Assembly (NCBI GenBank): GCA_964605645.1
Contig: CAZSDJ010000007.1
Coordinates: forward strand, 1-24,000
Length of the DNA stretch: 24,000 nt
Direction of reading: 5' to 3'
From: an uncultured Planctomycetia bacterium
Lineage (GTDB): Bacteria; Omnitrophota; Gorgyraeia; Duberdicusellales; 4484-171
The number at the start of each line of letters is the position of its first letter. The stretch's first letter is position 1. This document shows positions 5,565 through 24,000 of this stretch, one piece after another. Below the pieces are notes generated by a model. It made no database searches, was not told the origin of the DNA, and worked only from the letters and a program-made list of their open reading frames with translations. The position numbers and the translations under genes are program-made.

Positions 5565-5582
5565 TTATCTCCCCCTCCTAAT

Positions 5583-5897: not shown

Positions 5898-6480
5898 TGA
5901 CCACCTCCTTTAATTCTTTTGCATCTAAACAGGTAATACCTAATTTTTGAGCCCATTTTACCAATCCTTTATCTGAGGTAGCAAGGGAAGCTTCCAGTTC
6001 CTTGGCGACTAGGATCAAATCGAAATCTTCTTTACTGTCCAGGATGCCTTCACGAAGAGCAATTCTATATTCTTGGCGGGCGGATTGGATAAGCTCTTGG
6101 GTTTTTTGGCGGCTATCTTCTTCTCTTAAGGCGCGGCGGGTATATTTTTCAGTAATTCTTAAACCTTTATTTACCCGCAGGCGGGTTTCTTCGATGAATT
6201 CATAAAGCAAAAGGGCCGGAATCGAATCTTGGTAAGAAGCAGGAGATTTTTTTGTGATTAAAATATGTTTATCAGCCGGCAGTTCTTTAGTAAATTTGAT
6301 TAATTCTTCATAGACGGTAGGGGGGATATAACAATTAATGTTTTTTTTATCTGTTATGATTTTTATGAAGTTTTCCAGGGCTTGACGGGGACTTTTGCCA
6401 AAAAACTTACGGGAGTCAGGATTAACAAAAATACTGGTGTCTAACACAATTTTTTTAATTTGTTGAGCCATGTTAATCAT
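5884..6480 (-). CDS. PIN-like domain protein, resembling the archaeal 'RNA ligase partner' (MJ_0950) family
   Basis: 198 aa. The N-terminus KKIVLDTSIFVNPDSRKFFG…CYIPPTVYEELIKF is PIN/RNA-ligase-partner-like. The gene overlaps ybjQ by 14 nt. The functional call is tentative. Confidence 0.4.
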   Translation of the reverse strand: MINMAQQIKKIVLDTSIFVNPDSRKFFGKSPRQALENFIKIITDKKNINCYIPPTVYEELIKFTKELPADKHILITKKSPASYQDSIPALLLYEFIEETRLRVNKGLRITEKYTRRALREEDSRQKTQELIQSARQEYRIALREGILDSKEDFDLILVAKELEASLATSDKGLVKWAQKLGITCLDAKELKEVVNDSN

Positions 6481-7504: not shown

Positions 7505-8289
7505 TGGATAAAAAAAAGTTAATAAATTTAGGGATTGGAGTAGTGCTGGCAATAATTGCGATTGTGATTATTAACGCCCGCCTTCAAGAAAGAGAAAATA
7601 TAATTCAGCGCCTTATTCAAGAAGGCAATGTGGCTCAAGTATTGGTGGCATCGCGTGATATCGAAAAAGGTGAAATGATCAGAGAGAATGTGTTGGGTTT
7701 TGTAAAAATTCGTTCAGAAAACCTTAAAAACAATGCCTTGCAATCGCCGGAGTCAGCAGTGGGGAAAATTGCCAGAGTCGATATTTTACGGAAGCAGGAA
7801 ATTTTATCAACTATGTTAGAACTTCCGGAAGGATCGCAAACACTTTCTCAAAAAACGCCTTCCGGGAAAAAAGCCTATACTATCTCTATTGATCAAATTT
7901 CAGCCGTGGGGGGGAATATCCGGCCGGGGAACAAAGTTGATGTGGTAAGCATAATGCAGCTTCCCCAAAATCAGGGCCAAACAGTTATGACTCTGTTTGA
8001 GGCGGCAAGAGTGCTTCAAATGGGCCAAGGCGGCAAGAACTTAGACAGTATTACTTTAGCCTTGACCAGCGAAGAAATAAAAGTTCTTACCTTTGCGCTG
8101 CAAAATGGACAAATCAAACTTGTACTTAGATCGCCTTTGGATGAACCGGAAGGAACAGCTTTTCAACCTTTTACCTATCAAACATTTATGCAAAAGATTT
8201 ATAATGCTATGGGAGTTAGCCCTCAAAGAGGGCCTGTTGAGCAAAAACCGGATGTTGAAATTTATCGCGGCGGGAGTTCAGGAGAGTAA
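7504..8289 (+). CDS. cpaB: Flp/Tad pilus assembly protein CpaB/RcpC (SAF domain + RcpC domain)
   Basis: 261 aa. N-terminal TM anchor, then a SAF-like segment (VLVASRDIEKGEMIRENVL…VGKIARVDILRKQEI) and a C-terminal CpaB-like region. The start overlaps the upstream stop by 1 nt (TAATG). Confidence 0.8.
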   Translation: MDKKKLINLGIGVVLAIIAIVIINARLQERENIIQRLIQEGNVAQVLVASRDIEKGEMIRENVLGFVKIRSENLKNNALQSPESAVGKIARVDILRKQEILSTMLELPEGSQTLSQKTPSGKKAYTISIDQISAVGGNIRPGNKVDVVSIMQLPQNQGQTVMTLFEAARVLQMGQGGKNLDSITLALTSEEIKVLTFALQNGQIKLVLRSPLDEPEGTAFQPFTYQTFMQKIYNAMGVSPQRGPVEQKPDVEIYRGGSSGE

Positions 8290-12135: not shown

Positions 12136-12137
12136 TT

Positions 12138-13202
12138 ATGGCAGAAGGCGTAGAAAAATTAAATAAGTTATTGGCTGATCCAAAAACTACAGAAATCATG
12201 ATTAACGGCCCTCAGGCTGTTTTTTTAGAAAAAGACGGTAAAACTTACAAGGAAGATTCTGTAAGTTTTAGCGAAAAAGAGATAGAAGATATTATAAAAG
12301 ATTTTTTTATAAAAAATGGAAAGATGGTGTCCCACAATCATCCTTATGCGGATGTTTGCCTCGAGGATGGATCACGCCTGAATATAATTTTAGCCCCGAT
12401 GTCACGCTGCGGCAGTTCAATTACAATCAGAAAGTTTTCTCAAGAACTAAAAAGTCTAGATGATTTATTGCAACGGGATGCAATGAGTAAAAATATGGCT
12501 GAATTTTTAAAAAGCTGTATCCAGGCAAAACTCAATATATTATTTTCCGGGGCAACCGGAACCGGTAAAACCACTACTTTAGAGATGCTTTCTTATTCAA
12601 TCCCCAAAGATGAAAGAATTGTAACTATTGAAGATACTGCAGAACTTCAGCTGCATCAGCCAAATTTAGTCCCACTGGAAACTCGTGATCCGGATGAAGA
12701 AGGTAGAGGGGGGGTAACTTTAAGAGATTTAATAAAAAATGCTCTCCGCATGCGCCCGGATCGAATAATTTTAGGTGAAGTACGCGGGGAGGAAGCTTTA
12801 GATATGGTACAAGCGATGGCAACCGGCCATACCGGGACTTTAGCGGTAGTTCACGGCAGCAGTCCTAAAGATATATTAGGCCGAATTGAGGCGATGGTTT
12901 TATCTTCCGGGATAAAACTGCCTTTAGAGGAAATTAGAAAAATGTTGGCGGCAACTTTAGATATTGTTGTGCAGCACCATCGCTTTGTCGATGGTTCCCG
13001 CCGGATTACTCATATTACAGAAGTAAGGGATATTCAGCAAGGAGAAATCGTTTTACAGGATTTATTTGTTTTTCGACGCGAAGGCAAAACTTCGGAAGGA
13101 AAAATTAAAGGAAGTTTCAAAACGGTGATGAAGAGATATCCTAAATTTTTCACCGATATGCGCCGTATGAACTTAATCGACGATAAAATCTTTTCCGATT
13201 AA
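12138..13202 (+). CDS. cpaF: second, stand-alone TadA/CpaF-type type IV filament ATPase
   Basis: 354 aa, starting 2 nt after the upstream stop. Walker A FSGATGTGKTTTLE, TIEDTAEL, RPDRIILGEVRGEEA and GHTGTLAVVHG are all intact. The compact N-terminal domain is similar to the corresponding region of the fusion protein. Confidence 0.85.
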   Translation: MAEGVEKLNKLLADPKTTEIMINGPQAVFLEKDGKTYKEDSVSFSEKEIEDIIKDFFIKNGKMVSHNHPYADVCLEDGSRLNIILAPMSRCGSSITIRKFSQELKSLDDLLQRDAMSKNMAEFLKSCIQAKLNILFSGATGTGKTTTLEMLSYSIPKDERIVTIEDTAELQLHQPNLVPLETRDPDEEGRGGVTLRDLIKNALRMRPDRIILGEVRGEEALDMVQAMATGHTGTLAVVHGSSPKDILGRIEAMVLSSGIKLPLEEIRKMLAATLDIVVQHHRFVDGSRRITHITEVRDIQQGEIVLQDLFVFRREGKTSEGKIKGSFKTVMKRYPKFFTDMRRMNLIDDKIFSD

Positions 13203-13212
13203 TCCACTCCAG

Positions 13213-13367
13213 AGGGGACGTTTCCCTCTTTCATAACTAATTGATTAACAACAAGTTGCAAAGGTATATTTTCCGCGTTTTTATTAGCTATGCATATTTT
13301 TTCCTGGAAATGTTGCCTTCATAACCAATTGTATAGCAAGGGGTTACAAACGAGGGAAACGTCCCCT
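13213..13367. repeat. 155-bp segment bounded by perfect 16-bp inverted repeats (AGGGGACGTTTCCCTC / GAGGGAAACGTCCCCT), MITE-like or a long hairpin
   Basis: 13213-13228 is the exact reverse complement of 13352-13367. Each arm is also a small self-hairpin. There is no ORF inside. It begins 10 nt after the cpaF stop. Confidence 0.5.
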
Positions 13368-13449
13368 TTTTATACCTTTTTTATATAAATTACAAAATTC
13401 CCTTGAAAAATCTTTTTTTGATATGTTATCTTTAAATCAAAGAGGGTTC

Positions 13450-13476
13450 TAGGGGCACGGCATGCCGTGACCCTAC
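13450..13476. repeat. REP-family palindrome variant (TAGGGGCAC-GGCATGCC-GTGACCCTAC)
   Basis: It shares the outer arms (TAGGGGCAC…GTGnCCCTAC) with the 28-bp palindromes at 18798, 19087 and 20640 but has a different centre. The 14-bp core CACGGCATGCCGTG is a perfect palindrome. Confidence 0.45.
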
Positions 13477-13484
13477 TTAGCCAA

Positions 13485-13509
13485 GGGGGCAAACGCCCCC
13501 TATTTTTTT
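13485..13509 (+). terminator. intrinsic terminator candidate
   Basis: GGGGGC-AAAC-GCCCCC stem-loop followed by TATTTTTTT. Confidence 0.6.
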
Positions 13510-13514
13510 ATCTG

Positions 13515-13542
13515 ATTCCCACCTTTTGGGTGGGAATTTTTA
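13515..13542 (+). terminator. second intrinsic terminator candidate
   Basis: ATTCCCACC-TTTTG-GGTGGGAAT stem-loop followed by TTTTT. In tandem with the previous hairpin. Confidence 0.55.
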
Positions 13543-13562
13543 TGATATAATAAAGGTCAATT

Positions 13563-15509
13563 ATGTTAGAAAAAGTTAATAAGATAATTGATTTTTTACG
13601 CTGGCCGGCATTTTTTCTTCTTTTTTCCTACCTGATTCTTTTTGCTTCTCTTAACTTACATGGTTTAGATTATTTGTTTCACATTAAAAGTGGTGAACAT
13701 ATCTTAGAAAGTGGCCATGTTCTCAGAGAAGATCCTTTTTCATTTACTCAAGCAGGCAAGAAATGGGATGATCATGAATGGCTTTATCAGGTTTTAATTT
13801 ATAAAATTTATCAGCAATTTGGGATTGAAGGGTTAGTTTTATTTAAAACAATAGTCTTAATTACAGCTTTTTTTCTTCTAGCTCTTATTGCTTTAAAGAT
13901 TGATTGGATTTTTGCTTTTTTTCTGATTTTTTTTAGCTTAAAAGTATCCTTTTTGCGTTTTACGCTGCGGCCGGACCATTTTAGTTTTCTCTTTTTTATT
14001 GTTTTTCTGATACCCTTTATCTTTAAAAAAAAGAAATTACTTTATTTACTTCCTTTTGTTCAGCTGATTTGGGTAAATACGCACGGTTTTTTCTTTCTCG
14101 GGCCGGCGGTATTAATTATTTATCTGCTCAGCGCTAAAATAAGTAAGCAACAATTTTCTGATGATTTTTACAAAAGAGTAAAAATTATAACCTTTTTTAC
14201 CTTTTTTGCCTGTTTGCTAAATCCTTATCCAATTGGTACTATCACCTATCCTTTAAAAATTATAAAAGATATATTAACCGGCCAACAAGGTGTTTTTTAT
14301 CAGAGCATACAAGAATTGCGAAAACCGCTAGCAGCTTTTAGTTGGAGTTCTTTATACATAAAATATCTGATAGCTACCAGTTTTTTTGTTTTTATTTTTA
14401 AAAAATTCAATCTTTTTTATGCTGTTCTTTGGCTGGTTATGGTGATTTTTGCCCTAAATTCTACCCGTAATTTCTACTTTTATATCCCGGCAGCAGTAGT
14501 ATTGGCCGTAAATCGATTTCCTTATTTGGAAAAATCTTTTTTAAAAAAAAGTATTACTCCTAAAAGGTTTATTTTTTTAAAAATTGTTTTATTAGTTTTT
14601 ATTGTAAAGATTTGTTTAGCAATTTCAGGTGAAATTATTGATTTACCGAAGACCAAACAGTCATACCTTGATTTTTCTGTAAAGAATTCACTCGCTACTA
14701 GCCAAAAGTCTCTTGGCCGGGAAAAAATTCAATATCCGGAAAAATTAATTGATTTTATAAAAAATAATAAATTGCCTGGGAGGATGTATAACAATTTTAA
14801 TCTTGGCTCAAGCTTAATATTTAATCTCTATCCGGAGAGAAAAGTATTTATTGACGGCAGGGCAGAATTTTACGGCCAAGATTTTTTTAATTTTTATAAT
14901 GAAATTTCATCCGGGGATGAGGAAAAAATAAAGGAAGCCGTCAGCAGATATAAGCTAGAAGGATTTGTGATTAGTTATGTTAGAAACGATCCTCCTGATT
15001 TAATTTTTAGCCTTTACCAGCAAGGCTATAAGTGTATTTATTTCGGGATGGATGGAATAATTTTTATAAAGAATTCAGCCTTAAAAAATTATACCAATTT
15101 AGAGAAAAAAATAGTTGATTTTGATAATTATAAACCAGAAAAAATTAATTTTATTAAAAATATAAAACTCTATACCCCCTACGCCGAAGGTTTGTACAAG
15201 AAAGGTTATATATTGTATAGATTAGGCTTTTATAATCAGAGTAGAATATATATGGACAATTTATTAAATATTTATCCGGGCCATTACAAGGCATTATATA
15301 TTCTGGCGAAAATAAATTATAAGAATAAAAAATATGAACAAGCTTATATTTTTGCGCGTCAGGCGCTTAGTTTTAAATCGGATTTTAAAAAAGCTAAGAA
15401 ATTTATTGCAAAAATTTATCTAGATTTAGGAAAAGAAGAAGAGGCCCAGGAAATTTTAGATAAATTAAATTTAAGTTTAGAAAAATTTAAAAATGAAAAG
15501 GTAAGGTAA
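13563..15509 (+). CDS. large polytopic membrane protein with C-terminal TPR repeats; possible GT-C-fold glycosyltransferase (tentative)
   Basis: 648 aa with about 10 or more hydrophobic helices in the first ~370 aa. The first loop carries an acidic motif (REDPFSFTQAGKKWDDHEWLYQ). The C-terminal ~120 aa read as TPR (…YKKGYILYRLGFYNQS…YKALYILAKINYKNKKYEQAYIFARQAL…). The function is a guess. Confidence 0.35.
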   Translation: MLEKVNKIIDFLRWPAFFLLFSYLILFASLNLHGLDYLFHIKSGEHILESGHVLREDPFSFTQAGKKWDDHEWLYQVLIYKIYQQFGIEGLVLFKTIVLITAFFLLALIALKIDWIFAFFLIFFSLKVSFLRFTLRPDHFSFLFFIVFLIPFIFKKKKLLYLLPFVQLIWVNTHGFFFLGPAVLIIYLLSAKISKQQFSDDFYKRVKIITFFTFFACLLNPYPIGTITYPLKIIKDILTGQQGVFYQSIQELRKPLAAFSWSSLYIKYLIATSFFVFIFKKFNLFYAVLWLVMVIFALNSTRNFYFYIPAAVVLAVNRFPYLEKSFLKKSITPKRFIFLKIVLLVFIVKICLAISGEIIDLPKTKQSYLDFSVKNSLATSQKSLGREKIQYPEKLIDFIKNNKLPGRMYNNFNLGSSLIFNLYPERKVFIDGRAEFYGQDFFNFYNEISSGDEEKIKEAVSRYKLEGFVISYVRNDPPDLIFSLYQQGYKCIYFGMDGIIFIKNSALKNYTNLEKKIVDFDNYKPEKINFIKNIKLYTPYAEGLYKKGYILYRLGFYNQSRIYMDNLLNIYPGHYKALYILAKINYKNKKYEQAYIFARQALSFKSDFKKAKKFIAKIYLDLGKEEEAQEILDKLNLSLEKFKNEKVR

Positions 15510-15510
15510 A

Positions 15511-16440
15511 TTATTTTTTATCAAGAGTGATATTCTTTGCTATATTTTTGATTTCTGCATAAATCTTTGCTTGATCGTTTCCCAAAGTCCAACCGATAAA
15601 TTTTAAGTCAAAATCATTAATTCTAAGGTAAAGTATAAGGTAATCTTGTCTATTGCCCTTTGTGATATCTGTGTATTGAATTTGGAAACCAGTATTTTTA
15701 TTTATAAAAAAAGAAGATTTTTTTACTTTTATATTTCTTTTAAGATTTAAATCATTAGATAAAGTATTTTTAAGAGTTTTTAAACTAAAACTTTTTTTAA
15801 ATAAATTTAATTCTTCGGGGATGATTAAGCAAAATGAATTACCATTTTTTCTGATTAAAGCAATTTCAGCTTCTGTTTTTAAGAATTTTTCCTTTATTTG
15901 AGAAAAATCATCCCTTCTTACTATTTTCCAGTTAGCGGGGGTATTGAGTTTATAATTGAAGGCTGGGCTTATAAATTCTTTTTGTCCGTATTTTTTAAGC
16001 TTTATTAAAAGCTGTTGTTTGTAGCTGATATAATAGGCGGTCAGATAGCCGTTAGTTAAAAGCATAATTACCGTTAAAATAGCTAAAATAGCGGCTCTTT
16101 TTAGCTTATCTAGAGCCAGGAGCCCTAAGCAAAGTAAAGTGACGATTCTAGCCCAAATTAAGCCATATTGGGCATCAACTAGGTAAAATACCAGGAGTGT
16201 GCTAATTAACCCCAAGAATAATCTGAAGAAAAAGGTTCTTTTTATTTTTGGCTTGTTTTGGAAGAATGCATAAGCTAAGTAGAAGTCAAAAAAAGCAAAG
16301 GCAAGTTTTAAATAGCCAAGCAGGTTTATGGGTAAATACATAACCTGCCAAAAGAAAAGAAAGAATTCAGCTAAACCTGTAACGAGAAGGACAAGCGCTA
16401 ATGTTTCGTAGTTTGATTTTAATTTAGATTTTTGGGCCAT
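15511..16440 (-). CDS. hypothetical membrane protein (N-terminal multi-TM region + C-terminal soluble domain)
   Basis: 309-aa ORF with 4-5 hydrophobic helices in the first ~150 aa. No recognisable motif. It is convergent with the previous gene, with only 1 nt between the stop codons. Confidence 0.6.
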   Translation of the reverse strand: MAQKSKLKSNYETLALVLLVTGLAEFFLFFWQVMYLPINLLGYLKLAFAFFDFYLAYAFFQNKPKIKRTFFFRLFLGLISTLLVFYLVDAQYGLIWARIVTLLCLGLLALDKLKRAAILAILTVIMLLTNGYLTAYYISYKQQLLIKLKKYGQKEFISPAFNYKLNTPANWKIVRRDDFSQIKEKFLKTEAEIALIRKNGNSFCLIIPEELNLFKKSFSLKTLKNTLSNDLNLKRNIKVKKSSFFINKNTGFQIQYTDITKGNRQDYLILYLRINDFDLKFIGWTLGNDQAKIYAEIKNIAKNITLDKK

Positions 16441-16482
16441 ATTTATTTTTAGTTACCAGTTGCCAGGCCACCAGTTTCCAGT

Positions 16483-17277
16483 TTAGTATTTTTCTAATAA
16501 TGAGGGAATAATAATTTTTGCGTCTTTTACTAAGTTTGCTTCGGATTCATCAAAAAGAAAAGGCTGCAATGAGTCAGCCTGTTTTTTTAGTTCTTTTTTG
16601 GAAAAGCCTTCAATTCTTTTTGTTATTGTTTGAAAAGGCTTTGTCTTGATGCCTAAAGTTTTTAACCTGTTTTTATCAATCGGATATTTATTTGAAAGCA
16701 TAAAAATTATATCATAAATATGCCTGCCTTTATTTTTTTTTCTGAGGGCATCGATTTTGTCAGCAAATAAAATGCTCTTTCTAGTGCAGAGGCAAGGATA
16801 AAACTGGCCAAAACCGGCAGCTACTTCTGTTTCTGTATTTATTCTTTGTTTTAACAAAACAGATTCTATTTTAATAATGATTCCTTCTTTTTTGGAATAT
16901 TTTGATTTTGCTTTATATGTTTGTTCTATTTGAGGGAAAATTAAATTTGCTACGTAAAGATTGCCCCAATGAGAAAACTCTAATTTAGGTTTTAGGCCAA
17001 TTCTTTTTAATTCATTTTTTACTTTTTCGAGAAGCTTTTCAAATTTAAGTTTGGTTATTTTGTTACTGTTAAAATCTAAATCTTCAGAAAATCTTTTTAA
17101 GTTATGAATCAATCTAAGATAAGTTCCTCCGGTAAAATAAAGTTTTTTCCCTTCCGGAATCTTATAAATTTCCTTTAGAATAAGGATTTGTAAATATTCT
17201 CGTAAAATTCCCCGGATTTTTGTAGGCGGCATCTCCCTTGATTTAGCCTGTTCTAACAAAGTTTCATAAGTCAGCAT
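16483..17277 (-). CDS. abiEii: AbiEii/AbiGii-family nucleotidyltransferase toxin (type IV TA / abortive infection)
   Basis: 264 aa. The motif YFTGGTYLRLIHNLKRFSEDLDFN is the DUF1814/AbiEii nucleotidyltransferase signature. The gene overlaps the upstream partner by 14 nt. Confidence 0.8.
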   Translation of the reverse strand: MLTYETLLEQAKSREMPPTKIRGILREYLQILILKEIYKIPEGKKLYFTGGTYLRLIHNLKRFSEDLDFNSNKITKLKFEKLLEKVKNELKRIGLKPKLEFSHWGNLYVANLIFPQIEQTYKAKSKYSKKEGIIIKIESVLLKQRINTETEVAAGFGQFYPCLCTRKSILFADKIDALRKKNKGRHIYDIIFMLSNKYPIDKNRLKTLGIKTKPFQTITKRIEGFSKKELKKQADSLQPFLFDESEANLVKDAKIIIPSLLEKY

Positions 17278-17872
17278 AAAATTCTCCCAGATTAAGATTA
17301 TAAAGTCTAGCGTATTTATTCAATTTTTTCTTATTAAGAGATTTAAGTTTTTTTTCATCAAACCGTTGGTCTTTTAAATTTATTTTTTTATTACGGTAAT
17401 TATTAAAATAGAGATAATCAATAAAGGCTTTTTCCGGCTCGGCAATAAGAATATTAAAATCGCCTTGTTTTTCTAAATAGTATCCCGCGAAAGCTTTTGG
17501 TTGGACTGTTTTATAAATAAAAAGGCCATGTTTATTTTTAAATTTGCGCGTAGGTTTTGTAGAGATAGACGTTACCGCCATAGATACTTCCGGAATAATG
17601 CTGTAATCCGATAAGGCAGTTTCTAGTGAGATATAAGAAGGATTATAAAGTTTGTTAGCAATATAAAAATCAGGGATCATAAAATCAGTTGGGAAGCTTA
17701 ACTCATATAAACCTCGCTTCAGGTGATAAATCCATCCTTTTTCACACCACCGAAACAGCATTTTTTTTAGATTTTCTTTTTTTTCGCTAGGTGAGAAGGA
17801 GAGAAGATCATCATAGGAAAAAATGAAGTATTTATGTTTTTCTAAAGTTTTGTAAAGTTCTTGAAATCTCAT
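17264..17872 (-). CDS. abiEi: AbiEi-family antitoxin / wHTH regulator
   Basis: 202 aa. The N-terminal wHTH-like pattern (…IFSYDDLLSF…LKKMLFRWCEKGWIYHLKRGLYEL) is typical of AbiEi. The gene lies immediately upstream of abiEii. Confidence 0.7.
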   Translation of the reverse strand: MRFQELYKTLEKHKYFIFSYDDLLSFSPSEKKENLKKMLFRWCEKGWIYHLKRGLYELSFPTDFMIPDFYIANKLYNPSYISLETALSDYSIIPEVSMAVTSISTKPTRKFKNKHGLFIYKTVQPKAFAGYYLEKQGDFNILIAEPEKAFIDYLYFNNYRNKKINLKDQRFDEKKLKSLNKKKLNKYARLYNLNLGEFYADL

Positions 17873-17979
17873 TTCACTAAGTACTCTTTTTTGTCCACTT
17901 ACTGAAACAAGTGTAACCTAATTTTCAAGGTTTGTCAAGGGTTGGAAGGTGATAGCTTGCGGTTATCAGAAGAAAGTAA

Positions 17980-18261
17980 TTAGCCTTCCTTGCGCAAATG
18001 GACTTGTTGATAAACCTCTTTTCTGTGGCCTATTTTAAAAATAATAATATCTTTTTTATCTATTTTATAAATAACCCGGTAATCACCGACGCGAAGTTTT
18101 CGATATTGCTGTAAGCCTCTTTTTAGGGGTTGCCCGTATTTTGTCGGTTCTGCCAATAATCTTTCTTCAATCGCTTTGCGAATTCTTTTTTGGAGATTTT
18201 TCGGTATTTTGGGCAGATCCTTTCTTTTAATATCGGGATGATAAAGTAAATTATAAGCCAT
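17980..18261 (-). CDS. RelE/ParE-family type II toxin
   Basis: 93 aa. …LPKIPKNLQKRIRKAIEERLLAEPTKYGQPLKRGLQQYRKLRVGDYRVIYKIDKKDIIIFKIGHRKEVY is a typical RelE/StbE pattern. Confidence 0.85.
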   Translation of the reverse strand: MAYNLLYHPDIKRKDLPKIPKNLQKRIRKAIEERLLAEPTKYGQPLKRGLQQYRKLRVGDYRVIYKIDKKDIIIFKIGHRKEVYQQVHLRKEG

Positions 18262-18489
18262 TTATTCCCAAGTTTCTTGATGCGATAGAGATTTTTTAGG
18301 AGAAAAGGTTTTTTCTCTTTCCTGGGCTGATTTTTGCCAATAGCTGTCTGCATGGAGTTCTAACGCCTCTTTGATCAAATCCCTTGCTGCCAAAGAGAGA
18401 GAAACTCCTTCTCGATGTGCCAATTTATCTAAAGCTTTGTATAATCTTGGTTCCAACACAACATTTAAACGCGGGTTTTTTGTCGGCAT
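18262..18489 (-). CDS. ribbon-helix-helix (CopG-like) antitoxin
   Basis: The preferred start is MPTKNPRLNVVLEPRLYKALDKLAHREGVSLSLAARDLIKEALE. On the - strand, GGAGGTG lies 7 nt upstream of this ATG. The stop abuts the toxin start (TAAATG). The longer ORF-track start (18537) lacks an RBS. Confidence 0.8.
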   Translation of the reverse strand: MPTKNPRLNVVLEPRLYKALDKLAHREGVSLSLAARDLIKEALELHADSYWQKSAQEREKTFSPKKSLSHQETWE

Positions 18490-18558
18490 AATTTTCACCT
18501 CCATATCAAATGTATCACATATGATGAACTTTGTCAAGAGCGGCTGGGGAGCATATTT

Positions 18559-19074
18559 TTATTTGGGGTAATATTTATCATTTTTCCAATTGCCAGGATT
18601 ATCGAGGATGTAATGGCGGATGCGGTTTAAATTGAATTCAGTGCGGATTGTGTGTTCATAATAATTGCGTTGCCAAATCGGTTGTTTTGGCATATTCCGT
18701 AATTGGTTGATCTGTTTTGTTGTTGTTGATTTAAACAATTTAACAATTGTCGGTATTGAATTTGGCGTGGAGCAACCAAATTTTTCAACATGATTATGTA
18801 CGGGCACATTGCAATGTGCCCGTACGATATTGATTATTCCATGGATATGATTTGGCATTATAATAAATTCATCCAATTCAATATTTTTACGGATTTTTTC
18901 CGTTTTACACCATTCTTTTTGAATAATTCTCCCATATTTATTTAAAATCATTTTTTCATTATATATATCGCCAAACAGGTATTTACGATTATTTACACAT
19001 ATTGTCACATAATACATACCTGGTTGGCTGTAATTGTAATTTTTTAATCGTATTGATTTGCGGTTTTTTAACAT
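18559..19074 (-). CDS. REP-associated tyrosine transposase (RAYT; IS200/IS605-like Y1 HUH transposase, COG1943-type)
   Basis: Typical N-terminus MLKNRKSIRLKNYNYSQPGMYYVTICV, HUH motif PNHIHGII and catalytic-Tyr block IWQRNYYEHTIRTE…IRHYILDNPGNW. The ORF-track start at 19098 lies inside the flanking palindrome, so the second Met (19074) is preferred. Confidence 0.85.
   Translation of the reverse strand: MLKNRKSIRLKNYNYSQPGMYYVTICVNNRKYLFGDIYNEKMILNKYGRIIQKEWCKTEKIRKNIELDEFIIMPNHIHGIINIVRAHCNVPVHNHVEKFGCSTPNSIPTIVKLFKSTTTKQINQLRNMPKQPIWQRNYYEHTIRTEFNLNRIRHYILDNPGNWKNDKYYPK
18798..18825. repeat. 28-bp perfect palindrome GTACGGGCACATTGCAATGTGCCCGTAC, a REP copy inside the RAYT coding sequence
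   Basis: Read directly. It encodes …VRAHCNVPV… between the HUH motif and the Tyr helix of the RAYT. Confidence 0.8.
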
Positions 19075-19086
19075 GGGTTTTATTTG

Positions 19087-19114
19087 GTAGGGGCACATTG
19101 CAATGTGCCCCTAC
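19087..19114. repeat. 28-bp perfect palindrome GTAGGGGCACATTGCAATGTGCCCCTAC (REP)
   Basis: Read directly. It lies in the divergent intergenic region between the RAYT and the 478-aa ORF. Confidence 0.85.
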
Positions 19115-19202
19115 ATTGTTATTTTTTACCCCCTTTACTTATAGACGAAATAAAACGGGAAATTCTTTCATTTTTTTTGATTTTATTCTATAATAGATAA
19201 TA

Positions 19203-20639
19203 ATGAAGAAAAAGATTGATGCCCGCCTGAAGAAGCTGGTGCTCAACCAACACAGAAATAATCCTAATCTAGGGGTGAGGAAGCTTTCTGACTTGTTAGA
19301 GAAGAAATACGGCGTCTTATTATCGAAAAGCAGTGTTCACTCTGTATTACAAGCTAAAGGAGCTAAGCTTAAAAAGGGGCGAAAAGAAGCTAAATTAGCT
19401 TATGAAAAAAACAGTATTCCGGAAGCAGGATTATTACTATTGCGCTGTATCGATAGTCAGATCGGATTCTTTGAGTATGTTAGCGATGAACTCAATATCT
19501 ACACCCCAAAGTTAAAAAAAGAATTGTTGAAAAAATTTATAATTTTAGCTAGCCTTGCTTTTTTATCAGCTGAAAAACCAAATACAGCAGCTCGTAAAAA
19601 GAGTTATTTACGGTTAGCGGGGTTGTATAGATTTCCCGTTAAAAAGTTCAATTATTTTAAAAAACAGATAGTGCGTTATCAGCCCACCCTGGAACTGAAA
19701 TTACTACATAAAAATTTAACGATTATTTCAGGAATAAAAATTATATTTATAGATAGGTCTTATATTTTTTCTGATGCAAAAATGACAACTCTTTGGGATT
19801 CTGTGCCCAAGATAGAATATTTCTTTTCTTCTCTCCAAGATGCAAAAAATCGCGTTATGAAAATGGCCAAAGAAGGTTTATTTATTTTTGGTTATACTAA
19901 AAGCTGGGGTCATCTATCCACCTTGGTTTTTAAATTAATTAAAGGCCAGAAGCAAAGGATCGCAGCGGTACAATTTTTAGATACAAAAGCGAAGGTGGTT
20001 GAGAAAATTGAGATGAAGAAAAAAACAGATTTTATTTTAGGTTATTATCCGAAAGGAGTTTCGAAAGGGTTAAATTTTCCTAAAAAACAAAAGCGATACA
20101 AGTGCATTCATCTTACTCCTTTAGGCACTTATTATCTTCTTGATTTATCTATAGAATTTATACAAAACATTGATAATGAAAGAATTATATCAAATAACGT
20201 CCTAATAAGAGATAAGAATTATGGCCTGCCTAATTGGGGTTTAATTACTTCTTATCAGAAAATTACCAAAACTCTCTTAAAGGATATAATTAACAGTTAC
20301 TTGTATTTATGGCCGGATAGAGAAGAAAGTTTTTTTGCAGGGACAAAAGCGATTGAACAATCTTTTTTCAACAAAGACGCGCAAAAAAAAGAAATAATGG
20401 GGATATTACCGCATAAATTAAGTTTTTCTCAATTAACGGATTTTAGCCGGGTTGGGCAATTGTTATCGATTTTGTGTAAAGAATTGGTGGAAGGTTTCGA
20501 ACCAAAACGGAAAAGGGGATTTATAGAAAACGGGAATGATTATCTGTTGGTAGTTTTAGATAAAATTGCTGCTAAAACTAAAAAAAGATTAAATAAACAA
20601 GCTTTTTTTGTGGATGGGAAAAGGGTGTTTTTTCGGTGA
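19203..20639 (+). CDS. hypothetical protein with an N-terminal transposase/integrase-style HTH; possibly a very divergent transposase
   Basis: 478 aa. The N-terminus …LVLNQHRNNPNLGVRKLSDLLEKKYGVLLSKSSVHSVLQAKGAKLKKGRK resembles the HTH that precedes catalytic domains in IS481/IS3-type transposases. …AGLLLLRCIDSQIGF…, …IIFIDRSY… and …YLWPDREESFFAGTK… are only weakly DDE-like. No firm catalytic assignment. Confidence 0.35.
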   Translation: MKKKIDARLKKLVLNQHRNNPNLGVRKLSDLLEKKYGVLLSKSSVHSVLQAKGAKLKKGRKEAKLAYEKNSIPEAGLLLLRCIDSQIGFFEYVSDELNIYTPKLKKELLKKFIILASLAFLSAEKPNTAARKKSYLRLAGLYRFPVKKFNYFKKQIVRYQPTLELKLLHKNLTIISGIKIIFIDRSYIFSDAKMTTLWDSVPKIEYFFSSLQDAKNRVMKMAKEGLFIFGYTKSWGHLSTLVFKLIKGQKQRIAAVQFLDTKAKVVEKIEMKKKTDFILGYYPKGVSKGLNFPKKQKRYKCIHLTPLGTYYLLDLSIEFIQNIDNERIISNNVLIRDKNYGLPNWGLITSYQKITKTLLKDIINSYLYLWPDREESFFAGTKAIEQSFFNKDAQKKEIMGILPHKLSFSQLTDFSRVGQLLSILCKELVEGFEPKRKRGFIENGNDYLLVVLDKIAAKTKKRLNKQAFFVDGKRVFFR

Positions 20640-20667
20640 GGAGGGGCACATTGCAATGTGCCCCTAC
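20640..20667. repeat. REP copy GGAGGGGCACATTGCAATGTGCCCCTAC (27/28 identical to 19087-19114; 24-bp perfect palindrome core 20642-20665)
   Basis: Read directly. It starts 1 nt after the stop codon of the 478-aa ORF. Confidence 0.85.
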
Positions 20668-20747
20668 CATACAACGATGCGTTGAAAAAAGCGCTTTCAT
20701 AATCTCCCTTTTTGCCTTGTTTTTTGTGGTAATTTTGTCATGTTATA

Positions 20748-20756
20748 TGTTATAAT
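20748..20756 (+). promoter_or_regulatory. extended -10 promoter candidate (TGtTATAAT) for the pilin array
   Basis: TG at 20748-20749 and TATAAT at 20751-20756, in the 190-bp intergenic region upstream of the first pilin gene. There is no convincing -35. Confidence 0.3.
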
Positions 20757-20767
20757 AAGAGTGTTTT

Positions 20768-20835
20768 GGGGGAGGCGCGAAAATGCGTAAAAATGTATTT
20801 TTAACAAGCCGGATGCCTCCCCCGAGGTTATCCGG
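20768..20835 (+). promoter_or_regulatory. structured 5' leader with two mutually exclusive hairpins upstream of the first pilin gene
   Basis: GGGGGAGGC (20768-20776) pairs with GCCTCCCCC (20815-20823). CCGGAT (20809-20814) pairs with ATCCGG (20830-20835), followed by TTTTG. The two stems are adjacent and appear sterically incompatible. Confidence 0.3.
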
Positions 20836-20857
20836 TTTTGTAATTATGGAGACAAAA

Positions 20858-21154
20858 ATGAAAAAAGCACAGTCAATAGTCGAATACGCAATAGCATTTG
20901 TGGTGGTGGTCAGCGGCATAATTGCTATCGGTTTTATTGCTGATGCAAGAGGAGTTTTCCAAAATCATTTTGATGAAGTAATGCAGGAAATGAGCATGAA
21001 CAATCAACCTGTTGCTGTTGTTTTGAATTCGGATAATAGTTCTGAAAAAGATGATTCTAAAACAGCTGCTTCTGAAGAGAACAATTCCGAAGAAGATGAT
21101 TCTACTGGTGTTAAAGCTGGAGGAATAAGTGCTTTTGGTGTTTGGTGGAAGTAG
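20858..21154 (+). CDS. pilin-like protein P1 (class III signal, Flp/TadE-like N-terminus, acidic S/D/E-rich tail)
   Basis: GGAG lies 6 nt upstream of ATG 20858. Begins MKKA|QSIVEYAIAFVVVVSGIIAIGF…. The ORF-track start at 20783 would add a 25-aa leader and sits inside the leader hairpin. Confidence 0.65.
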   Translation: MKKAQSIVEYAIAFVVVVSGIIAIGFIADARGVFQNHFDEVMQEMSMNNQPVAVVLNSDNSSEKDDSKTAASEENNSEEDDSTGVKAGGISAFGVWWK

Positions 21155-21178
21155 TTTTGGTTTTTAATTTTAAAAATA

Positions 21179-21367
21179 ATGAAACGAAACAAAAGTAAAG
21201 TTATGATTAGAAAATTACAAAAAAGTAAAGCACAGTCGATTTTAGAGTATTCATTGTTGATAATGGTGATAGCTGCAGCCTTGATGGCGATGCAGAAGTA
21301 TATACGCCGAGCGATGAACGCACGATTAAAACAAGTACAGGAAGAATTAGATGAATCTTCACGATAA
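21179..21367 (+). CDS. pilin-like protein P2 (short, Flp-sized)
   Basis: …KLQKSKA|QSILEYSLLIMVIAAALMAMQKYIRRAMNARLKQ…. 62 aa, or 54 aa if it starts at ATG 21203. No strong SD at either start. Confidence 0.6.
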   Translation: MKRNKSKVMIRKLQKSKAQSILEYSLLIMVIAAALMAMQKYIRRAMNARLKQVQEELDESSR

Positions 21368-21383
21368 CTTAAGGAGGTGGGAG

Positions 21384-21575
21384 ATGTTAAGGAAGGGGCA
21401 AAGTATTTTGGAATACATGATTATTTTAGCGGTAATAATTGCTGCGGTGGTTGTTGGCGCTAAATATATGCAGAAGAGCACCGACCAAGGACTGCAAGAT
21501 GCAACTGGTGCTATGGAAAGTGCAACCGGTAAGTTCAAGAGCCAAGTTGGCGGCGGTCTCGGTGACGGAAATTAA
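21384..21575 (+). CDS. pilin-like protein P3 (short, Flp-sized)
   Basis: AGGAGGTG (21372-21379) precedes ATG 21384. Begins MLRKG|QSILEYMIILAVIIAAVVVGAKYMQK…. The ORF-track start at 21351 overlaps P2 and lacks an RBS. Confidence 0.75.
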   Translation: MLRKGQSILEYMIILAVIIAAVVVGAKYMQKSTDQGLQDATGAMESATGKFKSQVGGGLGDGN

Positions 21576-21598
21576 AAATAATTTTTAGGAGGTGGCAG

Positions 21599-21985
21599 AT
21601 GTTAATAGTTTTAAGAAAAAAAATAAGAGCCCAGTCAACGGCAGAGTATGCGATCTTTTTTGGCATCATTATTGCTGTGGCAATCGGGATGCAGAAGTAT
21701 CTAAAAAGAGGCATGCAGGGAAAGGTGAAGTCAGTTACCGATGCGGTAGGGCAATCGGCGCAAGGCCAAACTATTGCCGGAACTGGTGTAACCCTACAAG
21801 ATGAAGGCCAATATGTGCCCTATTATCTTGTTGATCAGGATTCAGGAACAACTAGTAGGAGCCAAGAGGTTAGCAAAGAAATGGCTACAACTGACGGCGG
21901 CGCTTTCACCAGAACGGAAACTCAAGATGCGGAAGCTGATTCTACGCAAACAGAAACATATTCTATTGGCGATCAAGGCTATTAA
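21599..21985 (+). CDS. pilin-like protein P4
   Basis: TAGGAGGTGG lies upstream. Begins MLIVLRKKIRA|QSTAEYAIFFGIIIAVAIGMQKYLKRGMQGKVKS…. T/D/E/Q-rich tail. Confidence 0.75.
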   Translation: MLIVLRKKIRAQSTAEYAIFFGIIIAVAIGMQKYLKRGMQGKVKSVTDAVGQSAQGQTIAGTGVTLQDEGQYVPYYLVDQDSGTTSRSQEVSKEMATTDGGAFTRTETQDAEADSTQTETYSIGDQGY

Positions 21986-22021
21986 TCGTTACGGGATAAA
22001 AAGATGAGGAGGAGGTTTTAG

Positions 22022-22330
22022 ATGTTAATGAAAATGCAAAAAGGACAAAGTACCCTAGAATACGCTGCGTTGTTTGCGGTAGTAATCGGGGCGATCATTG
22101 CCGGCCAAGTTTATTTTAAACGCGGTGTGCAAGGCAAACTGAAATCATCGGCAGATCAAATGGGTGAGCAATATTCGTTTGGGGCAACGGGGACTATTAC
22201 TCAAGAGATATCTTCATCGTCTGAAGAAGTTACAGGTGGCGGAACAACTACAACTACTTCCCAACAAACTCAAAGCCAGGAAAGTGATATTAACATTGGC
22301 GGATTTGATGAGGAGTATTGGGGAGAGTAA
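22022..22330 (+). CDS. pilin-like protein P5
   Basis: GAGGAGGAGG lies upstream. Begins MLMKMQKG|QSTLEYAALFAVVIGAIIAGQVYFKRGVQGKLKS…. The tail contains SSSSEEVTGGGTTTTTSQQTQSQES. Confidence 0.75.
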   Translation: MLMKMQKGQSTLEYAALFAVVIGAIIAGQVYFKRGVQGKLKSSADQMGEQYSFGATGTITQEISSSSEEVTGGGTTTTTSQQTQSQESDINIGGFDEEYWGE

Positions 22331-22365
22331 TAATTAAGAAAAGAGCAGAAAAGGAGTGATTATTT

Positions 22366-22728
22366 GTGCGTAAAACTCAGAGTTTATTGAATTATGCGAT
22401 ATTGATGGTGGTGGTTGGCTTAGCTCTTGTTGGGATGAATAAATACTTTAAAAGAGGTGTTCAAGGCAAGGTCGCCGGGCTTTCCGATGCGATGATTGCA
22501 CCTCGCGCAGATCATCTAGCTTATACCGATCAAGACATGGTGCAAAATTCGCAAACAATTCAAGATATGAATGTAAGCATAAATTTAGGAGCAGAAGGGG
22601 CTCAATCCAAACGATCATCTACAACAGCAACTAGTAATACCCATAGAGTTACAGAGGATGAAGATTATGTGGAAGGGGATAGCTCAGGAAATTTAAAGGG
22701 GATAGCTCAGGAGATTTATAAGAAGTAG
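22366..22728 (+). CDS. pilin-like protein P6 (Asn instead of Glu at predicted +5)
   Basis: GTG start with AAGGAG 9 nt upstream. Begins MRKT|QSLLNYAILMVVVGLALVGMNKYFKRGVQGKVAG…. Confidence 0.65.
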   Translation: MRKTQSLLNYAILMVVVGLALVGMNKYFKRGVQGKVAGLSDAMIAPRADHLAYTDQDMVQNSQTIQDMNVSINLGAEGAQSKRSSTTATSNTHRVTEDEDYVEGDSSGNLKGIAQEIYKK

Positions 22729-22758
22729 TTTAAATAAAGTAATTTATTAAAGAAAAAT

Positions 22759-23646
22759 ATGATTCAAAAAATTAAAAAAGCACAAGCATTAACAGAAATG
22801 GCAATATTTGGAACGTTGATATTGCTTTGTTTTTATTACTTATTAACTTATATCCAGAGAATGAATGAAACTCAATATGTGACTCAAGAAGCTTTTCGGA
22901 ATGCACTGGAAAGAGCATCTGACTCAAGTGTAGGCTCGGTAAGCTATGTAAATTTTTCTAATAAACGCCAAGCCAATCTTTATTCTCCGGTTGTAGGAGA
23001 AAGAAGCCAAATAAGCGGCTCTGGACAAATATATTGGGGAACTCCTCCTATTACCTATACTGACGAAGGTGCAGTAGAAACTGGTGAGCTTGCAGCCCAC
23101 GCTTACTATAAATTTAATAAAGATGAGCGTGAATTAAGCGGTATTTTGGCTGGAGAAGAAAGCCCAGCTGTTGAGCTAAGTAGCGGGTCACTTAATGTTT
23201 TGGTAAATAGATTAGGTTCAAGTCTTCAAGGTACAATTAACGCTTACGCTGGCGAAGATGAAACAGTTTTAGGCGATACAAGTATTACCGGCGTTAGCAG
23301 TTCTGTAGGCTCATCCCACCTGGAAGATGTGGTAAATACTACATTACAGCAAAATAATGAAAATAATGAAGATGCAAGTGAGAATGAGATAGAGATAGAT
23401 TCTTATGTAAAGGTAAATGCTTCTACACAAATAAATTATAATAATTCGAATATTACGACTAACCAATCAGGGAAGGTAGAAGATAAAGTGATTTATACTA
23501 TAAATGATAAAGACGGGAATCCGCTTTATAGTATTGATCAAGGCCTTGGCCAAGATGGTTATTATAGTCATACGGATGTGGATAAAGAAGTTGATAATGT
23601 AATGTTACCGGGCGATAGCCCGAGACAATGGATAGCAGTGAAATGA
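22759..23646 (+). CDS. large pilin-like protein P7 (TadE/TadG-like minor pilin or tip/adhesin candidate)
   Basis: 295 aa. Begins MIQKIKKA|QALTEMAIFGTLILLCFYYLL…, followed by a ~260-aa soluble S/G/N/E-rich region. Confidence 0.6.
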   Translation: MIQKIKKAQALTEMAIFGTLILLCFYYLLTYIQRMNETQYVTQEAFRNALERASDSSVGSVSYVNFSNKRQANLYSPVVGERSQISGSGQIYWGTPPITYTDEGAVETGELAAHAYYKFNKDERELSGILAGEESPAVELSSGSLNVLVNRLGSSLQGTINAYAGEDETVLGDTSITGVSSSVGSSHLEDVVNTTLQQNNENNEDASENEIEIDSYVKVNASTQINYNNSNITTNQSGKVEDKVIYTINDKDGNPLYSIDQGLGQDGYYSHTDVDKEVDNVMLPGDSPRQWIAVK

Positions 23647-23876
23647 AATTAATAAAAAAAACAGAAGTTACTTTAGAATTAGCGGTTACTTTTGTGGTTT
23701 TTTGCCTCTTTATTTTAGGCATAATCAATATTTGGGTTTGGGGGCACGCCCAAATTGCAGGAAGAAGCAATAGTTATGAACAGAGTCGAAGAGAAGCTGG
23801 CAATCAAGATCCTGGCCGTCCGGCAGGTTATAATCCTAGTAGTTTAACCGAAGAGGAAGTGATTTTAAGCAATTAA
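23643..23876 (+). CDS. TadE-like pseudopilin P8
   Basis: The ATG at 23643 overlaps the P7 stop (ATGA). Begins MKLIKKT|EVTLELAVTFVVFCLFILGIINIW…. The ORF-track start at 23628 is 5 codons upstream. Confidence 0.6.
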   Translation: MKLIKKTEVTLELAVTFVVFCLFILGIINIWVWGHAQIAGRSNSYEQSRREAGNQDPGRPAGYNPSSLTEEEVILSN

Positions 23877-23884
23877 GTATATCA

Positions 23885-24000
23885 ATGATTTTGTATAAAA
23901 GAAAAAAAGTTCAATCAGCAATAGAATATGCAGCTTTGATTGCTGTAGTAGCGGGTGCATTATTAGCATTTAGTGTTTATTTTAAAAGAGCTACTCAAGG
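23885..24000 (+). CDS. pilin-like protein P9 (5' part only, truncated by the window end)
   Basis: Hand-translated: MILYKRKKV|QSAIEYAALIAVVAGALLAFSVYFKRATQG…. It has the same signal and post-helix YFKR-x-QG motif as P4-P6. It is absent from the ORF track because it runs off the window. Confidence 0.6.
   Translation, partial: MILYKRKKVQSAIEYAALIAVVAGALLAFSVYFKRATQ

Follow-up and report, generated by a model that had tools for sequence, protein, structure and literature searches.

A probable Tad pilin cassette of nine tandem genes in an uncultured Omnitrophota bacterium

Introduction

The Omnitrophota are widespread, mostly ultra-small and uncultured bacteria, for which a predatory or parasitic way of life has been proposed. 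Here we describe a run of nine small genes, P1 to P9, at the end of a 24,000-nucleotide stretch of genomic DNA from an uncultured member of this phylum (NCBI GenBank assembly GCA_964605645.1, contig CAZSDJ010000007.1, positions 1 to 24,000 of the forward strand; this whole stretch is called the window below). Each of the nine genes encodes a protein that opens with a pilin-like leader and a hydrophobic helix, and genes for Tad pilus machinery lie upstream of them in the same window. We take these genes, with a probability of about 0.75, for the pilin cassette belonging to a Tad (type IVc) pilus locus.

Tad complexes have been described as a hallmark of the Omnitrophota, and the Tad locus has been placed among the main candidate host-interaction organelles of the phylum in the available part of the survey by Seymour et al. 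(2023, PMC10066038). There, the TadB and TadC proteins of Omnitrophota cluster with those of Bdellovibrionales and RcpA clusters with predatory myxobacteria, the RcpA of the Velamenicoccia grouping with that of the predatory Stigmatella and of Vulgatibacter. That survey scored machinery genes (TadB/C, RcpA), and the portion of it at hand does not dissect the pilins. We found no description of an Omnitrophota pilin array in the literature surveyed, and PMC12583861 makes no mention of pili. The Kil Tad pilus of Myxococcus is built from a major Flp, two short adapter Flps and four tip trimers of TadE/F/G type (Herrou et al., 2025, PMC12075869). The Tad system of Bdellovibrio, as set out in the accessible part of a preprint (bioRxiv 10.64898/2026.07.08.737194), combines a TadZA fusion, extra tadA copies, four flp genes (flp1-4) and TadE/F/G; its tad loci are reported there to be without TadV, and Flp1 to be processed by a PilD encoded elsewhere. 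Tad systems as such have been inferred to stem from an Epd-like archaeal system (Denise et al., 2019, PMC6668835).

Results

Nine tandem genes share a pilin-type N-terminus

Nine consecutive plus-strand open reading frames (ORFs) run from about position 20858 to the end of the window (Table 1), as seen both in the ORF list and in frame translation. They are separated by gaps of 8-48 nt, and P7 overlaps P8. All nine carry the motif (K/R)(K/R)(G/A/T/V)↓Q-S-x-x-E-Y or a near variant of it, where the arrow marks the predicted cleavage site, and a hydrophobic helix comes after it. When a profile made from the nine N-termini was run on six-frame, stop-to-stop segments of the window, only these nine ORFs were matched on either strand, with E-values of 1e-12 to 1e-16. 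This bore out the tandem same-strand arrangement with a shared N-terminus described in the first-pass annotation of the window, whose quoted N-terminal strings were exact for all nine proteins. After one iteration over 83 sources (the window and 82 related loci) the profile returned 639 matches; these share the strand of the anchor gene without exception, the other strand giving no match. The restriction of the window matches to these nine ORFs, together with the 639 same-strand matches, indicates that the array is real and far beyond what chance would produce.

The 575 unique N-termini among these sequences gave a sharp logo with the consensus (K/R)(K/R)(G/A)↓Q-S-T-L-E-Y. Lys or Arg occupies position -3 in 69% and position -2 in 78% of the sequences, position -1 is Gly in 55% and Ala in 39%, and the residues after the predicted cut are Gln at +1 (90%), Glu at +5 (97%) and Tyr at +6 (92%). 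Conservation is also seen at Y+23, R+26 and Q+29. Read from sequence, the signal is a mixed one, with the spacing and the E5-Y6 pair of a bacterial Flp and the KG↓Q leader of an archaeal class III signal.

Matches of single window proteins to curated family models lay below the thresholds of those models. P3 matched Pfam Class_IIIsignal with E=0.028 (14.8 bits against a cut-off of 23.7) and NCBIfam TIGR04205 with E=0.001. P8 scored 17.4 bits on Pfam TadE (PF07811, cut-off 22.9), and its orthologues in two closely related loci, L001 and L002, scored 22.3 and 18.0 bits on the same model. The P9 orthologues in these loci gave weak matches to Flp_Fap (E=0.004, 17.3 bits against 32.2) and to Class_IIIsignal (E=0.015). 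No window protein matched Flp_Fap (PF04964) at E <= 0.1, and P7 had no Pfam match of any kind. At the level of the family, 62 of 101 P5-family representatives matched Class_IIIsignal at E <= 0.1, 35 of 101 matched Flp_Fap and 30 of 101 matched DUF4244, the best E-values being 5e-6 for Class_IIIsignal and 7e-6 for Flp_Fap. The best matches of the N-terminal profile to PDB sequences were weak, namely an archaellin (E=0.03) and the 45-residue Caulobacter Tad pilins 8u1k/8u2b (E=0.2), which aligned with E5-Y6 in register.

Translation signals differ along the array. P3, P4 and P5 are each preceded by a near-identical strong Shine-Dalgarno (SD) sequence, AGGAGGT-N5-ATGTTAA, that of P3 being AGGAGGTGGGAG-ATG. 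The SD of P6 is GGAG, and those of P2, P7, P8 and P9 are weak or absent. An SD of five or more matching bases was found across loci in front of 85% of P3-like genes, the best-conserved class, as compared with 68-69% for P4 and P5, 46-65% for the other classes and 21% for the background.

Table 1. Positions of the array, the Tad machinery and the genes between them in the window
Feature	Position	Strand	Details and basis
PPIase (SurA/PrsA-like, Rotamase_2), first gene of the Tad operon	6608-7504	+	Pfam
RcpC/CpaB	7504-8289	+	Pfam RcpC, E=1e-17
RcpA-type secretin with C-terminal TonB_C	8289-9887	+	Secretin E=1e-43; T2SS-T3SS_pil_N E=2e-11
TadZ-TadA fusion, 725 aa	9958-12135	+	N-terminal CbiA/ParA/AAA_31; C-terminal T2SSE, E=2e-60
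Second T2SSE ATPase, 354 aa, without TadZ part	12138-13202	+	Pfam
Lineage-specific insertion in the machinery-to-pilin gap	13563..19098	.
Insertion content: 648-aa protein			Polytopic membrane N-terminus, C-terminal tetratricopeptide repeats (TPRs)
Insertion content: 309-aa membrane protein		-
Insertion content: AbiEii toxin and upstream partner		-
Insertion content: ParE and small partner		-
Insertion content: IS200-like Y1 transposase fragment	18559-19098	-
478-aa protein	19203..20639	+	Directly upstream of array; weak N-terminal helix-turn-helix (HTH_33/32/21, transposase-type, sub-threshold)
P1, pilin-like gene	20858..21154	+	Other possible in-frame starts: 20783, 20846; ORF list, profile match
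P2, Flp-size pilin (predicted)	21203..21367 (longest ORF from 21179)	+	ORF list, profile match
P3, Flp-size pilin (predicted)	21384..21575 (longest ORF from 21351)	+	RKG↓QSILEY; ~58 aa mature
P4, tailed Flp-like pilin (predicted)	21599..21985	+	IRA↓QSTAEY; KYLKRGMQGKVKS motif
P5, tailed Flp-like pilin (predicted)	22022..22330	+	QKG↓QSTLEY; YFKRGVQGKLKSSADQMGEQYS
P6, tailed Flp-like pilin (predicted)	22366..22728	+	GTG start; RKT↓QSLLNY; KYFKRGVQGKV
P7, large pilin-fold protein (predicted)	22759..23646	+	KKA↓QALTEM; predicted fold, in-register N-terminus
P8, small TadE-like minor pilin (predicted)	23628..23876	+	KKT↓EVTLELAVTF...IWVWGHAQI; overlaps P7 end
P9, short Flp-like pilin (predicted)	23885..24000, cut by window end	+	KKV↓QSAIEY...YFKRATQ

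A Tad machinery operon lies upstream

The machinery genes of the window (Table 1) gave Pfam matches well above thresholds. Judged by its gene content, the locus is a Tad (type IVc) system, since it has a secretin with a pilus-formation domain, RcpC, TadZ and TadA, with TadB and TadC present in the orthologous loci. The secretin, RcpC and TadZ together assign it to the bacterial, diderm Tad systems and set it apart from archaeal Epd systems. In the window and in 35 related loci (36 sources) the peptidyl-prolyl isomerase (PPIase) comes first in the operon, which suggests that the Tad system has a folding helper of its own in the periplasm. The TonB_C domain of the secretin was matched with E=2e-14, and the L001 orthologue is recorded with the same fusion; the literature on Tad secretins that we surveyed does not mention a secretin-TonB_C fusion.

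We looked for a prepilin peptidase in three ways. Pfam searches for Peptidase_A24/TadV gave no match in 20 large window ORFs or in the called genes of L001 and L002. Across the 82 loci with 10 kb on either side, the polytopic ORFs of 120-330 aa picked out by a crude hydropathy filter were TadB/C or unrelated proteins, none of them a peptidase. A regular-expression search for the A24 motif GxGD(V/I)K returned spurious matches only.

The array is conserved and under purifying selection

In L001 and L002 the order of genes is the 478-aa gene, the nine small genes, two T2SSF genes (TadB and TadC, 284 aa each, directly after P9) and then a TadG-like gene. The last of these, a 447-aa protein after TadC in L002, passes the PF13400 (Tad) model with 26.7 bits against a threshold of 22.3. 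This gene order shows that the array has exactly nine members in the lineage, plus a TadG-like tenth gene past TadC. All nine genes are kept in the same order in both loci, and P9, complete there, encodes 56-59 aa. Identity to the L001 and L002 orthologues is highest for P2 (74-94%), P3 (77-82%), P5 (75-78%) and P4 (73-74%), followed by P8 (58-71%), P9 (66%), P6 (54-62%), P1 (45-48%) and P7 (42-44%); for comparison, TadZA reaches 85% and the 478-aa gene 56-63%. The rate of nonsynonymous differences (pN) was far below that of synonymous differences (pS) in every pilin gene (0.37 versus 0.74 for P1), and with dS saturated the dN/dS values are approximate, at 0.07-0.37 where computable (not for P3). 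The nine genes are under purifying selection and none of them is decaying.

The array extends through the phylum. Homologues of P5 numbered 47, those with names came from Candidatus Omnitrophica, and two sources label relatives as "Flp pilin" or "UPF0333"; the wider P5 family comprised 4569 cluster representatives at E <= 1e-3 in a library clustered at 50% identity. Searching genomes with the P5-family alignment gave 272 relatives, and the best 80 of these 272 loci were examined, almost all of them in metagenome-assembled genomes of Omnitrophota. Over the 82 loci the array holds 3-12 pilin-like genes, mostly 6-10, with the lowest counts on short or cut contigs. The order P2-P3-P4-P5 recurs, with P4 followed by P5 101 times and the triad P3-P4-P5 55 times, and 24 of the 82 loci have two or more P4-P5 pairs. 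The order of PPIase, RcpC, secretin, TadZA, array, TadB and TadC is conserved phylum-wide (about 50 loci). An orthologous array also lies in the Tad locus of V. archaeovorus (CP019384, 12382-29832).

P7 used by itself in a contig scan retrieved no relatives, which we put down to the small size of its family (15 proteins). In a distant, complete Omnitrophota chromosome (L046, positions 11505-18028), four genes stand between a Flp-like array and TadB/TadC. They encode proteins of 579 aa with a P7-like N-terminus, 101 aa (P8/TadE-like), 1319 aa with a TadG-like N-terminus and 141 aa (P9-like), and no Pfam domain was detected in any of the four.

A shared N-terminal domain carries divergent tails

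P2, P4, P5, P6 and P9 are mutually similar over positions +20 to +50 (z of 4-15 against shuffles) and share an N-terminal domain of about 50 residues with the motif KY-x-KRG-x-QGK-x-K. Past +50 the tails show no mutual similarity (z < 2.5). The unrelated C-termini that the first-pass annotation ascribed to the paralogues are therefore a property of the tails, whereas the region before them is common to these five proteins. The tails consist of 21-34% Ser plus Thr and 17-23% Asp plus Glu. P7 and P8 resemble the other paralogues in the leader-plus-helix region alone, and an hhalign comparison of the P5 and P7 families placed residues 1-35 in register with E=2e-4.

P1 has the leader MKKA↓QSIVEY, a hydrophobic helix and an acidic low-complexity tail ending in FGVWWK; its orthologues in L001 and L002 keep the N-terminal ~55 residues, and their tails differ greatly in length (161 versus 261 aa). 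P2 (SKA↓QSILEY) has about 47 aa past the predicted cleavage site, is of a size to be all helix and ends in ARLKQVQEELDESSR, and the mature length of P2-like genes is constant across loci (n=82, median 47). The tail of P4 is 67 residues of Ser, Thr and acidic type, and that of P5 is rich in Thr and Ser and ends in EEYWGE. P7 is conserved in its N- and C-terminal parts around a hypervariable acidic insert, and one of its 15 homologues carries the source name "pseudopilin PulG". Towards its 3' end P6 contains a tandem duplication of 23 nt (22673-22718, copies 96% identical). As 23 is not a multiple of three, it alters the frame of the last ~10 residues (…GDSSGNL followed by KGIAQEIYKK); without the duplication the protein would end in …GDSSGDL, nearer to the L002 orthologue. 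Slipped-strand variation may account for the duplication, or it may be a variant of the assembly.

AlphaFold2 (AF2) modelled P5, with 42 sequences, as a single long helix over residues 11-49 with predicted local distance difference test (pLDDT) scores of ~80-95, followed by a tail with pLDDT below 50 that is predicted to be disordered. P7, with 15 sequences, gave a pLDDT of 80.6 and a predicted template modelling score of 0.73; its model has a helix at 2-53 and then a beta-sheet domain, with low confidence in the acidic insert. Searching the PDB with the P5 profile returned chance avidin matches to the tail and nothing else.

Other genes of the window

Between the machinery and the array lies an insertion whose genes for the 648-aa and 309-aa proteins occur in only 4 of the 83 sources, the window and its closest relatives L001-L003. 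With so narrow a distribution, the 648-aa gene falls outside the core system. The 648-aa protein was considered as a glycosyltransferase for the Ser/Thr-rich pilin tails and rejected, as sequence searches gave TPR matches only.

The 478-aa gene occupies the same position in 18 related loci, and in the distant L046 its place is taken by a 569-aa protein with a similar N-terminus. Flanking palindromes and the IS200-like neighbour had raised the possibility of a transposase, which we rejected because the position is conserved in related Tad loci; on the same ground we treat the gene as a component of the locus, which may be a regulator or a structural part. Where related loci include upstream sequence and have two T2SSE matches some 2.2 kb (a full gene) apart, most also have the 478-aa gene. 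The palindrome is a 22-nt GC-rich sequence, GGGGCACATTGCAATGTGCCCC, present in three copies (0 expected in shuffles), exact at 19090-19111 and 20643-20664 and with 2 mismatches at 18801-18822. Two copies flank the 478-aa gene and one lies inside the ORF of the IS200-like Y1 transposase. Such an arrangement could be a pairing of the kind seen between repetitive extragenic palindromes and their associated tyrosine transposases (REP/RAYT-like), or the palindromes could be terminators.

Two further regions appear unrelated to the array. A CsgG-like lipoprotein with a FlgT_C domain is encoded at 61-972, and a minus-strand cluster at 4116-6480 encodes a PIN_5 nuclease, two YbjQ-domain proteins and an M48 peptidase.

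Discussion

A probable pilin cassette with candidate filament, adapter and tip subunits

Our reading of the region as the pilin cassette of an Omnitrophota Tad locus is based on the genes themselves, their common motif, their Tad context, their conservation under purifying selection and the predicted folds of the monomers. It agrees with the first-pass annotation, which had taken the nine products for class-III-signal pilin paralogues, and the Tad context, the sharp logo, the sub-threshold Pfam matches and the AF2 models all support that view and their place in a Tad system. In the mechanism we predict, the hydrophobic helix of each of the nine products would anchor it in the inner membrane. 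A prepilin peptidase whose gene lies elsewhere in the genome would then cut after (K/R)(K/R)(G/A), so that the mature protein starts with Gln (+1) and has Glu at +5 and Tyr at +6. The TadZ-TadA ATPase and the TadB/TadC platform would pull the pilin out of the membrane, and polymerisation would proceed through the RcpA-type secretin. We infer that the major subunit is P3 or P2, both of Flp size and all helix. P7 and P8, together with the TadG-like protein encoded past the window, would make up a tip or priming complex, with the short P9 as adapter pilin; by analogy with Kil, these four adjacent proteins are candidates for a Kil-type tip complex with its adapter. P1, P4, P5 and P6 would be tailed Flp-like pilins specific to Omnitrophota, whose conserved helix of about 50 residues enters the fibre and whose acidic, Ser/Thr-rich tails stand out from it and probably make contact with cells of the host or prey.

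Several observations weigh against this reading. None of the nine window proteins reached a curated threshold of the Pfam or NCBIfam models for Flp_Fap, TadE or Class_IIIsignal. The residue at -1 is Thr in P6 and P8 and Val in P9, both rare in a family that has Gly or Ala there in 94% of cases, and these three proteins may be poor substrates; P6 also has Asn in place of Glu at +5. As the searches of the window and of 10 kb on either side in 82 related loci gave no peptidase gene, processing is assumed. The P7 model had no Foldseek match in the PDB at E < 0.1, and its beta domain matched no solved pilin significantly. Given the low confidence of the P5 tail model, "disordered" may mean folding only in a complex. 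Finally, what guides our allocation of the major, adapter and tip roles is the size of the proteins, the strength of their SDs, the order of the genes and analogy.

A more specific proposal can be made about how the proteins are put together, which taken as a whole we consider possible but doubtful. In it the conserved P3-P4-P5 core would not be a set of minor pilins: together with P2 it would co-polymerise to make the body of a heteropolymeric Tad filament, a "bottle-brush" pilus. Its Flp-type helices would carry disordered, acidic, Ser/Thr-rich and possibly glycosylated tails of 45-70 residues; the pilus would be specific to ultra-small Omnitrophota and serve to hold or attack host cells; and the family, with at least 4,500 clusters and no curated model, would be a living intermediate between the archaeal Epd-type signal (KG↓Q) and Flp (E5-Y6).

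Alternatives to a pilin cassette of distinct subunits

The array could instead encode alternative major pilins that are used one at a time under differential regulation, giving switchable filaments that are antigenically or functionally distinct. P2, P3 and P9 are alike in size, as are P4, P5 and P6, and all share a polymerisation-type N-terminal domain. The duplication of P4-P5 modules in 24 of the 82 loci would suit such a scheme, as would the report, in the accessible part of the Bdellovibrio preprint (bioRxiv 10.64898/2026.07.08.737194), that flp3 and flp4 are expressed differently from flp1 and flp2; a switchable filament has been suggested for these differently timed genes. The genes of the array, however, are packed on one strand with gaps of 8-48 nt or an overlap. 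Promoter and terminator scans of 19000-24000 gave no excess over shuffles, so no internal regulation can be inferred. No inverted repeats of invertible-segment or flanking type were found in the array, and the direct DNA repeats that it does contain, all of them diverged copies of the stretch coding for the N-terminal motif, are 63-75% identical over no more than 40 nt. All nine genes have complete leaders and helices, several with their own SD, which distinguishes them from pilE/pilS-type variable cassettes. Each paralogue moreover forms its own orthologous lineage, in fixed order and under purifying selection in L001 and L002, and this points to non-redundant roles. We consider a switchable set unlikely, and the suggestion of one in the first-pass annotation is not borne out. 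The same annotation had proposed a heteropolymer, and this is plausible in the ordinary sense of major plus minor, adapter and tip pilins, as in the Kil Tad pilus (PMC12075869), but not beyond it. Decay of all genes but one, part of a condition that it had named as refuting its reading, is not seen, as all nine are retained in L001 and L002 with pN far below pS. Array length across related genomes, which it had proposed to compare, ranges from 3 to 12 genes and is mostly 6-10.

Less likely again is a Tad-derived secretion machine, in which a helical pseudopilus would act as a piston and P1, P4-P6 or large neighbours would be cargo tagged with a class III signal. The acidic, Ser/Thr-rich, species-variable tails, predicted to be disordered in P5, resemble those of secreted or surface effectors. 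Giant-protein loci of Omnitrophota have been reported beside genes of the type II secretion system (T2SS), type IV pili and Tad (bioRxiv 10.64898/2026.06.07.730766), and the TonB_C fusion of the secretin is unusual. In the tailed proteins, nevertheless, the whole of the E5-Y6 helix is kept, as is the KRGxQGK segment, and it is these parts that would be expected to pack in a fibre. All components are those of a Tad pilus, with the T2SS proteins GspC, GspL and GspM absent from the window ORFs in Pfam scans. We found no precedent in the literature surveyed for cargo with a pilin signal in a Tad system. Pilin-like secreted substrates, which the first-pass annotation had also proposed, are possible but gain no support from our data.

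That the nine are uncleaved small bitopic membrane proteins, with a plain anchor at the N-terminus and no link to a filament, would fit the failure of all nine to pass a curated pilin model and the missing peptidase gene, but is very improbable given the array's place in Tad operons phylum-wide, the family matches to Class_IIIsignal and Flp_Fap, the helix-plus-beta-domain layout predicted for P7, which is that of a pilin, and residues at -1, +1, +5 and +6 that are near-invariant over 575 sequences, as at a processing and assembly site and unlike a plain anchor.

Our analysis adds to the picture of the Omnitrophota Tad locus that it holds between six and twelve pilin-like genes in a conserved block, whose P3-P4-P5 core is found throughout the phylum, and that the block includes a large family of "tailed Flp" proteins that has no model and is mostly left hypothetical by annotation pipelines. 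With a TadZA fusion, no TadV, many Flps and a short Flp next to a TadE/F/G-like trio, the overall design of the locus corresponds to that of the Tad systems of predator type in Bdellovibrio and Myxococcus. The analysis yields filament, adapter and tip candidates for the Omnitrophota pilus, a profile for annotation and a testable link between the diversity of pilin tails and host range.

Comparison with described Tad and archaeal systems

Among described systems, that of Bdellovibrio bacteriovorus (the parts available of bioRxiv 10.64898/2026.07.08.737194 and of Avidan et al., 2017, PMC5430801) is alike in its TadZ-TadA fusion, an extra TadA, the lack of TadV in the locus and its many Flps. As far as those sources go, the pilin genes of Bdellovibrio are dispersed, whereas those of the present locus stand together in the operon as a single tandem run of nine, or ten if TadG is counted, and the KRGxQGK "tailed Flp" family, to which most of them belong, is not described for Bdellovibrio. 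The secretin of the present locus also bears a TonB_C domain.

The Kil system of Myxococcus xanthus (PMC12075869, PMC8460266) likewise has many pilins, with KilP as the major subunit, KilK and KilO as adapters and TadE/F/G-type trimers that include a large distal subunit. One Kil adapter Flp is encoded within a tip cluster, and the position of P9 beside P7-P8(-TadG) mirrors this layout of adapter plus tip. Kil pilins are spread over several loci, however, and the Kil tips are restricted by sequence to Myxococcota. The P7 model has no significant Foldseek match in the PDB, the P3-P4-P5 core of tailed Flps has no described Kil counterpart, and no partner of the T3SS* type was seen in the window.

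With the canonical Flp/Tad systems (Aggregatibacter flp-tad, Caulobacter cpa) the locus shares RcpC/CpaB, RcpA/CpaC, TadZ/CpaE, TadA/CpaF and TadB/C. The E-Y pair stands at the same distance from the cleavage site as in the Caulobacter PilA structures (8u1k/8u2b), and there are Flp-size subunits of 45-60 aa in the mature form. Where canonical loci have one to three flp genes plus tadE/F(/G), this array has nine or ten pilin-like genes. The first-pass annotation took such a number to be far outside Tad practice; it does exceed the canonical set, but the contrast is weakened by Kil, with its major Flp, two adapter Flps and four tip trimers, and by flp1-4 of Bdellovibrio in the accessible part of that preprint. 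The array proteins also score below the Flp_Fap threshold and have Gln at +1 with Lys or Arg at -2 and -3, as in archaeal class III signals, and in this locus TadZ and TadA are fused and tadV is lacking.

The archaeal EppA-dependent (Epd) pilins of the Class_IIIsignal family (PF04021) are similar in the (K/R)G↓Q end of the leader and in their shortness, and some relatives of the array proteins are named "UPF0333". The P5 family matches Class_IIIsignal more often than Flp_Fap (62 versus 35 of 101), a likeness to Epd; the window proteins nevertheless stay under the PF04021 threshold (14.8 versus 23.7 bits), and Tyr at +6 is a hallmark of bacterial Flp. No new kind of machine is revealed by these comparisons: the type is itself a known one, and what is unusual about the Omnitrophota locus is the number of its pilin-like genes and the long tails of several of their products.

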